Source: Waddliaceae bacterium
GTDB taxonomy: Bacteria; Chlamydiota; Chlamydiia; Chlamydiales; Waddliaceae
Direction: 5' to 3'
DNA: 64,000 bases
NCBI GenBank assembly: GCA_963724325.1
Contig: CAVRUH010000007.1
Location: 32,001 to 96,000, forward strand
Every line of letters starts with the position of its first letter. The stretch's first letter is position 1. The notes below the pieces were generated by a model. The model had not been told where the DNA came from. It searched no databases and saw only the letters and a list, made by a program, of their open reading frames with translations. Position numbers and translations under genes: made by a program. This document shows, piece by piece, positions 31,604 through 35,230 of the stretch.

Positions 31604-33100
31604 ATGAAAGAGTACGATCAGTTATTGAAACACGCTCGTTACATCAAAACGATGAACGGTATTTTGTCATTATTGGGTTGGGATCAGGAAACATACATGC
31701 CCTCTGGCAGCGTTGGGATTCGTTCCGAGCAGAAAGAGGCCATGACTGGAATGATCCATCGAGAGATGACAGGTAAAGCCTACACGAATGCTCTTGCTAA
31801 GTTGATCGATCTCAAATCGGGGAAGCCGATTGTCGAAGGACTGACTGCAGATCAAAAGGCTGCGCTTCGGGAATTCTATCGGGATCATGTCCACGCTACA
31901 GCATTGCCAGTTGATTTTGTTGAAGAATATGCTCGATTAACATCTGAGGCAGCTCATGTCTGGCAAGAGGCTAGAGCCCGAAATGATTTCGGTTTATTTC
32001 TCCCTTCTCTTGAAAAAATCATCGAGATGAGTCGTAAAAAAGCTGAATTGCTGGGCTACAAAGAGAATCCTTATGATGCCCTTTTGGATGAATATGAACC
32101 TGCATTGACAACACGTGAAGTTTCCGCACTGTTCACTCAATTGCGCAAGTCGATAATCCCACTCTACAAAAAAATATGTTCTTCTAAGCATCCAAATGAT
32201 GTTTTTCTTAAGGGAAATTTTTCAGAAAAAAGTCAGCAGGAATTCAATCAGACCTTGCTTAAAGGAATTGAATACGATTTGACAAAAGGGAGATTGGATA
32301 TTTCGACTCATCCGTTTTCTTCCTCCTCACATCCTACTGATAATAGGATTACTACAAGAATTCAGAAAAGTGATCTGATTAGTAATATTCGAAGTGTTTT
32401 ACATGAAAGCGGCCATGCTTTTTATGAGATGGGGCTTCCTGTGGAGCATTATGGGTCGCCGTTGGGCAGTTCAGTTTCTCTCGGGGTTCATGAAAGTCAA
32501 TCGCGTTGGTGGGAGACACGCATTGGACTTAGCAAGGGATTTTGGAAACATTTTCTTCCGATGTTAAAAAAGCAGTTTAAGGGAAAATTTGATCGTGTTA
32601 CTGTAGATGCCTTTTACAATGCCATTAATAAAGTATCGCCTTCTTATATAAGGGTAGAGTCAGATGAGGTGACGTATCCATTGCATGTGATTATTCGATT
32701 TGAGATAGAGTGTCTTTTGATAGATGGTACTTTGCAGGCAAAGGATATTCCAGGGGTTTGGAATGCTAAGATGAAGGAGTATATTGGGATAGTGCCTAAG
32801 AATGATGCTGAGGGATGTTTGCAGGATATACATTGGGCATTTGGTGCATTTGGGTATTTTCCTACATATACGTTGGGAAATATTTATTGTGCGCAGTTTT
32901 TTGAAACTTTTGCAGAAGAGTTTCCAAATTGGGAGGAGCGGATTGCAAAAGGGGAGGTGGGTTTTATGAAAGATTGGTTAACACAAAATATTCATCGTCA
33001 TGGACGCAAATACACACCCAAAGATCTTTTGAAAAAGGTTACCGGCAAAAAAATCTCCGTCGATCCTTACATTAATTATCTGAAAGAAAAATACGAATAA
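31604..33100 (+). CDS. Carboxypeptidase, family M32
   Basis: HPF, HESGH, HESQS, IRVESDE and GYFPTYTLG motifs. Confidence 0.95.
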   Translation: MKEYDQLLKHARYIKTMNGILSLLGWDQETYMPSGSVGIRSEQKEAMTGMIHREMTGKAYTNALAKLIDLKSGKPIVEGLTADQKAALREFYRDHVHATALPVDFVEEYARLTSEAAHVWQEARARNDFGLFLPSLEKIIEMSRKKAELLGYKENPYDALLDEYEPALTTREVSALFTQLRKSIIPLYKKICSSKHPNDVFLKGNFSEKSQQEFNQTLLKGIEYDLTKGRLDISTHPFSSSSHPTDNRITTRIQKSDLISNIRSVLHESGHAFYEMGLPVEHYGSPLGSSVSLGVHESQSRWWETRIGLSKGFWKHFLPMLKKQFKGKFDRVTVDAFYNAINKVSPSYIRVESDEVTYPLHVIIRFEIECLLIDGTLQAKDIPGVWNAKMKEYIGIVPKNDAEGCLQDIHWAFGAFGYFPTYTLGNIYCAQFFETFAEEFPNWEERIAKGEVGFMKDWLTQNIHRHGRKYTPKDLLKKVTGKKISVDPYINYLKEKYE

Positions 33101-34812
33101 ATTATGGAGTGACCCAATTCATTGGGTCTTTTTCAGGACCGAATTCATTCGGTCCTGTGGATGGCAAGTTATCGCCGTTCTCAGATGAGGAATCGGGTAA
33201 GTCAAGGGCGAAGAAAATAAATTAAATATTGTGTTCTTGTTCCTCAGCACGCCAAGTAAAGGTTTGCTTTTGATTTTCTCCGGAAAGTATCAAAGACCAT
33301 TCATGAGTTGTATCTTTGATGTATGTTGAAGATCCTAAACACTAAATTATGGAGTGACCCAATTCATTGGGTCTTTTTCAGGACCGAATTCATTCGGTCC
33401 TGTGGATGGCAAGTTATCGCCGTTCTCAGATGAGGATCGGGTAAGTCAAGGACGAAGAAAATAAATTAAATATTGTGTTCTTGTTCCTCAGCGCGCCAAG
33501 TAAAGGTTTGCTTTTGATTTTCTCCGGAAAGTATCAAAGACCATTCATGAGTTGTATTTTTGATGTATGCTGAAGAACCTAAACACTAAATTATGGAGTG
33601 ACCCAATTCATTGGGTCTTTTTCAGGACCGAATTCATTCGGTCCTGTGGATGGCAAGTTATCGCCGTTCTCAGATGAGGAATCGGGTAAGTCAAGGGCGA
33701 AGAAAATAAATTAAATATTGTGTTCTTGTTCCTCAGCACGCCAAGTAAAGGTTTGCTTTTGATTTTCTCCGGAAAGTATTAAAGACCATTCATAAGTTGT
33801 ATCTTTGATGTATGTTGAAGATCCTAAACACTAAATTATGGAGTGACCCAATTCATTGGGTCTTTTTCAGGACCGAATTCATTCGGTCCTGTGGATGGCA
33901 AGTTATCGCCGTTCTCAGATGAGGAATCGGGTAAGTCAAGGGCGAAGAAAATAAATTAAATATTGTGTTCTTGTTCCTCAGCACGCCAAGTAAAGGTTTG
34001 CTTTTGATTTTCTCCGGAAAGTATTAAAGACCATTCATAAGTTGTATCTTTGATGTATGTTGAAGATCCTAAACACTAAATTATGGAGTGACCCAATTCA
34101 TTGGGTCTTTTTCAGGACCGAATTCATTCGGTCCTGTGGATGGCAAGTTATCGCCGTTCTCAGATGAGGAATCGGGTAAGTCAAGGACGAAGAAAATAAA
34201 TTAAATATTGTGTTCTTGTTCCTCAGCGCGCCAAGTAAAGGTTTGCTTTTGATTTTCTCCGGAAAGTATCAAAGACCATTCATGAGTTGTATCTTTGATG
34301 TATGTTGAAGATCCTAAACACTAAATTATGGAGTGACCCAATTCATTGGGTCTTTTTCAGGACCGAATTCATTCGGTCCTGTGGATGGCAAGTTATCGCC
34401 GTTCTCAGATTAGGAATCGGGTAAGTCAAGGGCGAAGAAAATAAATTAAATATTGTGTTCTTGTTCCTCAGCACGCCAAGTAAAGGTTTGCTTTTGATTT
34501 TCTCCGGAAAGTATCAAAGACCATTCATGAGTTGTATCTTTGATGTATGCTGAAGAACCTAAACACTAAATTATGGAGTGACCCAATTCATTGGGTCTTT
34601 TTCAGGACCGAATTCATTCGGTCCTGTGGATGGCAAGTTGTCGCTGTTCTCAGATTAGGAATCGGGTAAGTCAAGGACGAAGAAAATAAATTAAATATTG
34701 TGTTCTTGTTCCTCAGCGCGCCAAGTAAAGGTTTGCTTTTGATTTTCTCCGGAAAGTATCAAAGACCATTCATGAGTTGTATCTTTGATGTATGCTGAAG
34801 AACCTAAACACT
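33098..34812. repeat. Tandem array, 7 x 245 bp (hairpin doublet plus 3' end of the adjacent minus-strand gene)
   Basis: Units start at 33098, 33343, 33587, 33832, 34077, 34322 and 34567. Confidence 0.97.
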
Positions 34813-35230
34813 CGGGCATATCAGGGTAATAGATGTCTGTAGTTGCTGCAAGGACAGCTTCTTGGCACCGAATCACCATATGATGCAATGCGGGGATGGA
34901 TGTTATCCGGCCTCCACTGGTTGAATATGAGTAGTGCAACGCTTTTTTTGCTGGCTCGGATGCTTCTCCAGAGTCTGTTATTTTTATGCAAACGTAAGGG
35001 TTTTCTATTCGAACAATTTCAGTAGAATGCTGTATTGACTGATTGGCATGCTGCTTTGCAGTACTAAAAAAGAGGTCAGCTAACTGACAAATTCCAATCA
35101 ATCCGTCATAGTCCTTGCTGTAGATCGTTGCTTTTTTACAGGTATAGGTTGTGTTGCACCTGCTAGGTTCATTTTGAACAATCTCGCTATAGTGTTTATC
35201 TGTGATCAAAAAATTCATTAATCCCTCCAT
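34691..35230 (-). CDS. Hypothetical protein whose last 39 codons lie in the 245-bp repeat unit
   Basis: 179-aa ORF; GGAGGG RBS-like motif before the second Met; no recognised motif. Confidence 0.65.
   Translation of the reverse strand: MEGLMNFLITDKHYSEIVQNEPSRCNTTYTCKKATIYSKDYDGLIGICQLADLFFSTAKQHANQSIQHSTEIVRIENPYVCIKITDSGEASEPAKKALHYSYSTSGGRITSIPALHHMVIRCQEAVLAATTDIYYPDMPECLGSSAYIKDTTHEWSLILSGENQKQTFTWRAEEQEHNI

Follow-up and report, generated by a model that had tools for sequence, protein, structure and literature searches.

The question raised by this locus is why the 3' end of a small gene should be repeated, in silent form, in a tandem array beside the gene itself. The original prediction allowed two answers: a store of variant C-termini that are swapped into the expressed gene, or the residue of a hairpin-triggered amplification that captured the gene end. 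Our analysis of the window (the whole 64-kb stretch of DNA under study) and of the genome around it points firmly to the second. The array is very probably an amplification by-product, whether or not a RAYT started it; it was probably the genome's own RAYT that did so, and amplification of that kind, proceeding from a REP, would make the gene-tail copies likely passengers.

Layout of the array

The tandem array (33098..34812, no strand assigned) consists, as first proposed, of seven units of 245 bp, or more exactly of 7.0 head-to-tail copies at 33098-34811 with a 1-base (T) overhang at 34812 (TRF score 3276, 98% matches). The units start at 33098, 33343, 33587, 33832, 34077, 34322 and 34567; unit 2 is 244 bp long and the other six are 245 bp each. 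To the left is an M32 carboxypeptidase gene on the plus strand (31505..33100; PF02074, E 2e-175), whose TAA stop (33098-33100, plus) forms the first three bases of unit 1, and to the right a 179-aa gene on the minus strand (34691..35230) converges on it. The stop codon of the carboxypeptidase is directly followed by a half-REPIN, which lies in the gap between the convergent genes.

This half-REPIN is the left arm of a genome-wide REPIN (33103..33180, plus, in unit 1; unit positions about 6-83), the right arm being absent, and likeness to full REPINs ends at unit position 83, at a C|T joint. The arm of unit 1 contains a REP (33106..33128, plus), in which GGAG and one base precede a 7-bp stem with a 4-nt loop and then T5, and a second hairpin (33134..33157, plus); both recur in all units. 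With T5 directly after it, the unit-1 REP is also terminator-like for the carboxypeptidase gene. Next comes a locus-specific linker of host intergenic DNA (33181..33221, no strand assigned), which has no match elsewhere in the genome longer than 14 bases, and then a silent copy of the stop and last 39 codons of the 179-aa gene (33222..33342, minus), likewise present in units 2-6. Unit 7 (34567..34811, no strand assigned) is made up of the original intergenic segment and the live 3' end of the gene. The hairpin doublet, linker and gene tail ascribed to each unit at the outset were accordingly found in every one.

The boundaries can be read to the base. Unit 1 starts 8 bases before the GGAG of its REP, and its left flank reads A|T, not C|T; the unit ends 39 codons inside the opposite gene at a C|T step (34811..34812, plus), which marks where the duplication broke on the gene side and lies some 220 bases 3' of the REP. 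An in-frame TAG had been seen ahead of CLGSS in units 1-6, and this is correct; the codon arises at the joint, two of its bases coming from the carboxypeptidase stop as copied in the following unit and one from the gene. All seven REPs have the same orientation and the unit is a left arm only, rather than a REP with an inverted REP, so that the array is of the 'tandem REP array' type and not a BIME module.

The REP family, its RAYT and other arrays

The hairpins are not peculiar to the array: the same REP occurs genome-wide in 147 copies forming 37 clusters, against 0 in one shuffle. Its head is GGAG (preceded by TAT or TTT), 1 nt, a perfect 7-bp stem and a 4-nt loop. Only 2 of the 37 clusters lie inside ORFs of at least 150 aa, though such ORFs cover 81% of the genome, and the family is nearly all extragenic. 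Lone inverted doublets, which fold as long hairpins, account for 19 clusters; several REP arrays alternate in orientation, and each REPIN arm holds two or three hairpins. A search of Rfam gave no structured-RNA match at E 1. The family has the arrangement expected of a REP, in which a conserved 5' tetranucleotide is followed, after 0-2 nt, by a hairpin of 7-20 bp and a loop of 2-5 nt, but the tag is GGAG where the strict definition has GT(A/G)G (PMC3686654) and where the tetranucleotide is 'most often GTAG' (PMC8266576); we therefore class the family as a variant of the REP/REPIN/BIME group with RAYT (REPtron).

Several relatives can be named from published reports. Like the BIME-2 and atypical BIME loci of E. 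coli, the array is built of tandem units that are anchored on a REP and show good conservation within one locus (PMC3333891), although it differs from E. coli BIMEs in its GGAG tag and perfect 7-bp stem and in having one REPIN arm per unit, not a REP plus an inverted REP. It likewise resembles the near-identical REPINs or single REPs arranged head-to-tail in Pseudomonas fluorescens SBW25 (Bertels and Rainey, PMC3116915) and the tandem clusters repeated with flanking DNA described by Di Nocera et al. (PMC3733652), and the family shares with tandem REPIN clusters the adjoining RAYT gene and the dominance of doublets (PMC3116915, PMC3733652). Compared with the SBW25 REPINs, it belongs to a different phylum, carries a different tag and has two or three hairpins per arm.

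The genome has a single PF01797 match, an intact, single-copy RAYT gene at C5:207304-207846, whose start is separated by about 60 bases from an array with 15 copies of the GGAG REP. REPs lie upstream only, so that the gene is not enclosed by inverted REPs on both sides; downstream it adjoins a neighbour's stop codon. The protein contains the motifs NHYH and YVINNP and scores 79.3 bits against NF047646, just under the cut-off of 80. These features recall TnpA-REP subclass 2.8 as described by Quentin et al. (PMC6006769), with its NHYH form of HUH, Y-x-x-x-NP and prolines near the N-terminus; that subclass is cyanobacterial, with long GT[AG]G REPs (PMC6006769), and the RAYT here is placed by motif alone. 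Among 14 other genomes, GGAG-T with a 7-bp hairpin of other sequence was present at 12 of 18 RAYT-relative loci; none of 9 control loci had it, and 50 shuffles averaged 0.06 loci. In the two kin genomes tested, REP abundance tracks RAYT presence: in a genome of the same genus no RAYT is matched at E 1e-10 and a single degenerate REP is present, while another genome of the same family, which does possess a RAYT, contains 37 copies of a REP of its own.

The locus is ordinary for this genome, being one of ten arrays on the GGAG hairpin and one of several that copy a gene end. Among 64 long arrays, 50 carry one of four palindromic families and 10 the GGAG REP. Captured segments elsewhere include the 3' end of a thymidine kinase gene with the 5' end of a GT92 gene (five copies, with open variant tails), a MenB-like 3' end with a UbiA-family 5' end (three copies), the 3' end of a TLC (ATP/ADP) translocase gene and the 5' end of tRNA-Arg (five copies). 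At a 486-aa ORF there are four copies of the tail, all open in the frame of the gene, and the end of this ORF could itself come from the repeat. The array studied here has the longest capture among the arrays listed, 122 bases, and a mean divergence of 2.0%, compared with 0.5-1.25% in four other REP arrays measured.

Variation among the units

The seven units differ at three non-synonymous (A>T, D>N and H>Y, giving T146, N150 and Y153) and three synonymous coding columns, in agreement with the counts first given, and at five non-coding columns that had been overlooked, one of them the 1-nt deletion in unit 2. All six silent copies are open, as claimed. That they are six variant copies is true only in part: the 39 residues encoded by unit 6 are those of the gene, and the six represent three variant peptide types, making four types among the seven units. 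Variants are indeed shared in mosaic fashion. No difference separates units 3 and 4, and two linked blocks (columns 111/152 and 229/236) are combined in reciprocal ways in units 5 and 6. By the four-gamete test, 6 of 21 informative site pairs are incompatible. Mosaicism is also seen in a REPIN array that is non-coding; incompatible sites were present in 3 of 20 arrays analysed, most of which have too few informative sites.

The mosaic had been offered as an argument against an assembly artefact, but taken alone it leaves room for one that arose in consensus building or polishing. Reads from two strains, or polishing across near-identical units, could have mixed alleles so that copy number or mosaic is partly an assembly product; the assembly is of metagenome type and 84.6% complete, the variants form two main haplotypes, and two frameshifts interrupt an ABC-F gene within the window, a sign that some indel errors may remain. 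Four shallow public contig sets contained no contig across a joint or the whole array. We nevertheless regard such an artefact as improbable. Arrays as long as 2.9 kb are resolved in contigs reaching 1.1 Mb, which would imply long reads; the variants fall in tightly linked pairs, unlike random errors; and the haplotype of unit 7, private alleles included, is exactly matched by a public short-read contig (depth 2.4), with zero differences over 225 bases. REPIN-family contigs were also present in two runs, although those runs may depend on the assembly.

Cassette systems such as Borrelia vls, Anaplasma msp2 and Neisseria pilS keep incomplete, silent copies in tandem next to a single expressed gene, and their variants are mosaic. 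They typically show a hypervariable region between conserved blocks, an excess of non-synonymous differences, an expressed locus that differs among molecules or strains, and a surface or secreted target. The array shares the first set of features with them, but has no hypervariable core between conserved blocks and no excess of amino-acid change, and the part copied is the conserved end of the protein. Its variation fits neutral drift in the silent tails. The probability of no stop among six changes is 0.67, so open tails are expected by chance; 6 of the 11 variable columns fall in the 120 coding bases of 245 (P 0.47); and 3 of 6 coding changes are synonymous (P 0.10-0.23), where neutrality expects about 70% non-synonymous, though the numbers are small. 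Taking the gene-linked state as reference, 5 of 6 tail changes are GC-to-AT.

The gene itself provides a further test. It had been described as an orphan, but belongs to a small uncharacterised family of about 180 aa: a full HMMER scan gave seven matches and, once the query and a 766-aa repetitive protein (13 short stretches) were removed, five homologues. A word-indexed search returned no protein besides the query itself; the gene was matched in 0 of 7 other genomes of the bacterial family, a profile search of 400 genomes of the phylum had its sole match in the source genome (one further genome being left unscored), and three contig scans for the DNA context of the homologues gave no match. 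In the same-genus genome no homologue was seen beside the carboxypeptidase or PhyH gene; synteny there is broken, with these two genes on separate contigs. The protein has no match in Pfam, NCBIfam or, by sequence, the PDB. A single-sequence structure model was unusable (pLDDT 30); an AlphaFold model from six sequences (pLDDT 72) predicts a beta-sheet with one long helix, the tail forming a discrete beta-hairpin region. Neither Foldseek (best E 5.5e-3, TM under 0.25) nor VIA (Z 5.4 at best, with rmsd 4.2 over 100 aligned residues) matched this model clearly to a fold. An HATPase_c domain suggested by the ESM Atlas (0.91, 164 shared features) was dropped because of this lack of a clear fold match and of any GHKL protein among the matches listed.

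A reservoir from which silent C-terminal cassettes are moved into the expressed gene by gene conversion or crossover would draw on the six open copies with their three variant types, the mosaic sharing, the length of the capture, a predicted discrete structural element as the exchanged part, and the physical possibility of crossover between units. The evidence runs strongly the other way, and we consider a reservoir very improbable. Across four full-length homologues no part of the protein is better conserved than the copied tail (mean identity 50% versus 29%), and the silent copies break both H153, kept in 4 of 4, and D150, kept in 3 of 4, while the gene-linked unit holds the family residues. 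The amino-acid variants lie 17, 29 and 38 bases from the start of the shared sequence, leaving little room for exchange, and the last 26 codons of the tail are without amino-acid variation. Non-synonymous change is not in excess, the ends of housekeeping genes are copied in like manner, and the single public contig over unit 7 does not differ from it. We hold it equally improbable that a REP-built array was co-opted as a contingency locus, with unequal exchange grafting a variant C-terminal beta-hairpin onto a small chlamydial protein; if true, REP/RAYT amplification would be a route by which cassette systems are born. CRISPR was rejected because the array has no unique spacers, and a DGR because the changes are not adenine-specific.

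Origin of the array

The amplification proposed at first from the hairpins and the captured gene end is thus supported, and can be tied to REP and RAYT by the 147 REPs, the RAYT gene beside a REP array and the other captures. TnpA-REP enzymes have C|T as their cut site (PMC8266576, PMC3333891); in the amplification model the C|T that they cut may lie on either side of the hairpin, 5' or 3', and even some way off (Ton-Hoang et al., PMC3333891). Under this model the RAYT would bind the single-stranded hairpin and nick 5' of it, and host polymerase would copy through the segment; a second nick at a distant C|T would free a 3' C, and its joining to the 5' T would add one unit. Repeated rounds or unequal exchange would yield seven units, in which point mutations would build up in the unexpressed copies and be shuffled between neighbours, with selection holding the gene-linked copy ancestral. 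Capture of flanking DNA has precedents: BIME amplification can sequester flanking genes or gene fragments, as at codA-cynR (PMC3333891), and gene 3' ends and fragments have been reported in BIMEs (PMC2817692, PMC3333891). A close parallel is the capture of rayt 3' ends within BIMEs (Nunvar et al. 2010, PMC2817692), where the unit likewise includes a gene 3' end and the DNA from stop to REP; in the four cases given there the captured gene is rayt itself, whereas here it is an unrelated neighbour and the RAYT is on another contig.

A similar by-product could form without a RAYT if replication stalled at the hairpins and switched template at 0-1 base of microhomology, RecA-type unequal exchange then expanding and shuffling the units. 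We consider this the less likely origin, but one with some evidence behind it. Another palindromic family without the GGAG tag carries 26 of the 64 long arrays, several with captured gene ends, and most of the other gene-capturing arrays are anchored on a different, untagged repeat family, so a RAYT is unnecessary for building such arrays. In a set of 19 near-integer arrays, the others have 0-8 bases shared at the joint with no fixed dinucleotide; a universal C|T rule for joints was tested there and not found. The 5' site of our array is moreover A|T, so that C|T stands at one of the two parental sites and one of the two cuts required by the model fits. Against a RAYT-free origin, both new joints inside the unit, at the gene side and at the end of the arm, are C|T (CT frequency 5.6%; a post-hoc comparison of two joints); the REP array C7:341014 shares the start 8 bases before GGAG and a C|T internal joint; and of the two kin genomes, the one that has a RAYT is rich in REPs and the other is not. 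Initiation by the genome's own RAYT accordingly remains the reading that we favour.

The new element here is a GGAG-T-tagged REP/RAYT clade in chlamydia-like bacteria, of modest novelty. We found no description of such a clade in the literature searched; published screens sought GTAG or GTGG tags, which it would have escaped. The array is a natural and clean record of how a REP is amplified. The published model in which a RAYT drives such amplification and flanking DNA is captured is unproven in vivo, and as both parental sites and the joint can be read at this locus, a direct test of it is possible. Beyond the array itself, the locus brings to light a GGAG-T-tagged RAYT clade that extends across a chlamydia-like order.

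Anatomy of the array and its silent copies

The seven-unit array of the original prediction is real: Tandem Repeats Finder places it at 33098-34812 of the window, with 7.0 copies of 245 bp and 98% matches. It starts at the TAA stop codon of an M32 carboxypeptidase gene and ends 39 codons within the converging 179-aa gene, and the unit is therefore the entire intergenic region together with a gene end. The in-frame TAG noted in units 1-6, the silent copies, is present and is made by the joint, where the copied stop codon gives two bases and the gene one. When the units are split, 11 columns prove variable. 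Six lie in the copied coding sequence (A146T, D150N, H153Y and three synonymous changes) and five outside it, including a 1-nt deletion in unit 2. As had been described, units 3 and 4 are identical in sequence and units 5 and 6 carry two linked blocks in reciprocal combinations; the six tail copies are not all variant proteins, however, since the 39 residues encoded by unit 6 are those of the gene itself. That the array reflects assembly effects is very unlikely in our judgement; 225 bases of unit 7, which is joined to the live gene, are matched without difference by one public contig (depth 2.4), and no public contig was found that bridges a unit joint.

The silent tail copies behave like drifting DNA. 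Six substitutions in 39 codons would leave no stop with a chance of 0.67, the variable columns are split between coding and non-coding sequence as expected (P 0.47), the synonymous share (3/6) shows no significant departure (P 0.10-0.23), and, with the gene-linked state as the starting point, five of the six tail changes are GC-to-AT transitions. Among 21 arrays with at least four copies, 20 of which could be split, the four-gamete test gave incompatibility in three, most others having too few informative sites. Incompatible site pairs number 6/21 in the present array, 12/15 in a repeat within a coding gene and 3/3 in a purely non-coding array of REPINs (inverted doublets of the REP hairpin); as this last array is also mosaic, mosaicism is not peculiar to gene-tail copies.

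The captured gene (34691-35230) is one of a rare family of proteins about 180 aa long, for which no Pfam match was found. It is not the orphan originally supposed: a search of 1.84 billion representatives gave five homologues, 119-181 aa long (leaving out the query and one repetitive match), and there are hints that two of these, P0004 and P0007, are paralogues on one contig. A model predicted from six sequences (pLDDT 72) has a beta-sheet and one long helix, with no clear fold match found. Conservation within the protein is highest in the copied tail, where mean identity to the four full-length homologues is 50%, against 29%; all four of them keep H153 and three keep D150, and the closest homologue shares A, D and H with the gene. 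The suggestion that the A146T, D150N and H153Y copies form a reservoir of C-terminal cassettes to be swapped into the expressed gene is hardly credible, given this conservation, the fit of the tail changes to drift, and the location of the amino-acid variants only 17, 29 and 38 bases into the shared sequence, which is a poor layout for exchange.

The REP family and its transposase

The first hairpin of the unit consists of GGAG, one base, a 7-bp stem and a 4-nt loop, and is a member of a genome-wide REP family with 147 copies in 37 clusters, against 0 in one shuffled genome. Nineteen of the clusters are lone inverted doublets that fold as long hairpins, and only two lie inside ORFs of at least 150 aa, although such ORFs make up 81% of the genome. 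The first 83 bases of the unit align with the left arm of the REPIN doublet, the likeness ending at a C/T step. A 215-218-bp unit, formed of a full REPIN with fixed flanks, is both dispersed singly (about ten sites) and arrayed in up to 13 copies (contigs C1:769430-774613, C7:331157-331760, C7:385055-386594 and C11:29810-30659), which suggests that the REPIN travels within a larger mobile unit. A REP-like family with a GTGG tag and 8-9-bp stems is present at 23934-24136 of the window and in 11 arrays genome-wide.

PF01797 has one match in the genome, an intact 180-aa protein with motifs NHYH and YVINNP that scores 79.3 (cut-off 80) against NF047646, 'REP-associated tyrosine transposase' (RAYT). 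About 60 bases separate the start of its gene from a 15-copy array of this REP (C5:207304-209473 for both), a proximity that links enzyme and repeat family; no second Y1 transposase was found in the 84.6% complete assembly. Relatives occur in 14 of the 150 other genomes of the order searched, and GGAG-T with a 7-bp hairpin of different sequence accompanies 12 of 18 of their loci, against 0/9 control loci and an average of 0.06 loci over 50 shuffles. In two hairpin searches of five genomes each, a same-family genome with its own RAYT had 37 copies of its own hairpin, and a same-genus genome (97% complete) without a RAYT match at E 1e-10 had one degenerate REP.

By its motifs alone, the enzyme resembles TnpA-REP subclass 2.8 (PMC6006769), and the array appears to work like a BIME, a published REP-array type, or a tandem REP array. 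The tag is GGAG rather than the GT(A/G)G of the strict definition (PMC3686654), each unit has a single REPIN arm, and the RAYT is flanked by REPs on one side only; we therefore file the system as a variant. GTAG repeats are mentioned for the PVC superphylum (PMC3733652). In the literature covered, we found no account of this REP or of RAYT systems in chlamydiae.

Other arrays and captured gene ends

Arrays and gene-end capture are common in this genome. This REP is found in 10 of 64 arrays (period at least 40, identity at least 90%), and one of four palindromic families in 50. Captured ends include a thymidine kinase 3' end with a GT92 5' end (five copies, tails open and variant; C7:10999-12028), a MenB-like 3' end with a UbiA-family 5' end (three copies; C7:447963-448710), the 5' 24 bases of a tRNA-Arg gene (five copies; C5:4407-5547), a repeated TLC ATP/ADP translocase 3' end (C1:939597-940207) and 12 bases of a chaperonin gene; another repeat family underlies all but the last. 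The translocase points to a chlamydia-like organism. No other array listed has a capture as long as that of the present one (122 bases), which also shows the greatest divergence among five REP arrays measured, at 2.0% versus 0.5-1.25% in the other four.

Another of the palindromic families, with about 238 core copies (in the window at 12413-13133, 56286-56487 and 56574-56866), anchors 26 of the 64 arrays, several with captured gene ends, and flanks one of two GxxExxY (PF13366) genes (C1:338349-338684). A fourth family forms a 69-bp x 4.8 array at 46329-46695, directly behind the stop codon of a dnaJ-like gene. The genome also has longer tandem duplications, of 1511 and 1402 bp, and an array of complex structure with periods of 144/265/409 bp (C1:958291-961338, C1:1002665-1005473 and C10:2024-3847). 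Also in the window, two frameshifts divide an ABC-F ATPase gene (25889-27471) among three frames, reflecting either a pseudogene or residual assembly indel errors, and a 247-aa protein (29473-30216) contains a U-box domain (E 1e-8), the kind of eukaryote-like feature that is typically seen in chlamydiae associated with hosts.

Origin of the array

The genome-wide REP, the RAYT and the other captured gene ends strongly favour the second reading originally offered, a by-product of hairpin-triggered amplification that captured the gene end. TnpA-REP enzymes cut single-stranded DNA between C and T (C/T), on either side of the hairpin (5' or 3') and at distant sites too, and join 3' C to 5' T (PMC8266576, PMC3333891). 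In a published model, host synthesis is primed by a nick 5' of the REP, a further nick on its 3' side releases the end for joining, one unit is added, and flanking genes or fragments may be sequestered (PMC3333891). Published cases of 3' ends captured between REPs include those of rayt genes (PMC2817692), and REPs or REPINs arrayed in tandem together with flanking DNA are also on record (PMC3116915, PMC3733652). In E. coli, circular intermediates of REPINs were not found in one study (bioRxiv 2024.07.17.603846).

C/T is present at the gene-side site, tandem joint and REPIN-arm end of the array, and a second REP array has the same start offset and C/T at an internal joint. Against RAYT cutting, the 5' parental site is A/T, and 19 near-integer arrays show short microhomologies only, with no common dinucleotide; both observations would suit a host-only event at the hairpin giving the same by-product, a possible but rather unlikely origin. 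Weighing these results against the C/T sites and the published model, we think it probable that the RAYT started the event by cutting at a REP hairpin, after which the number of units would have expanded and variants been shuffled between them. The array is a real structure that a known process explains, and the REP/RAYT variant that underlies it is modestly new.
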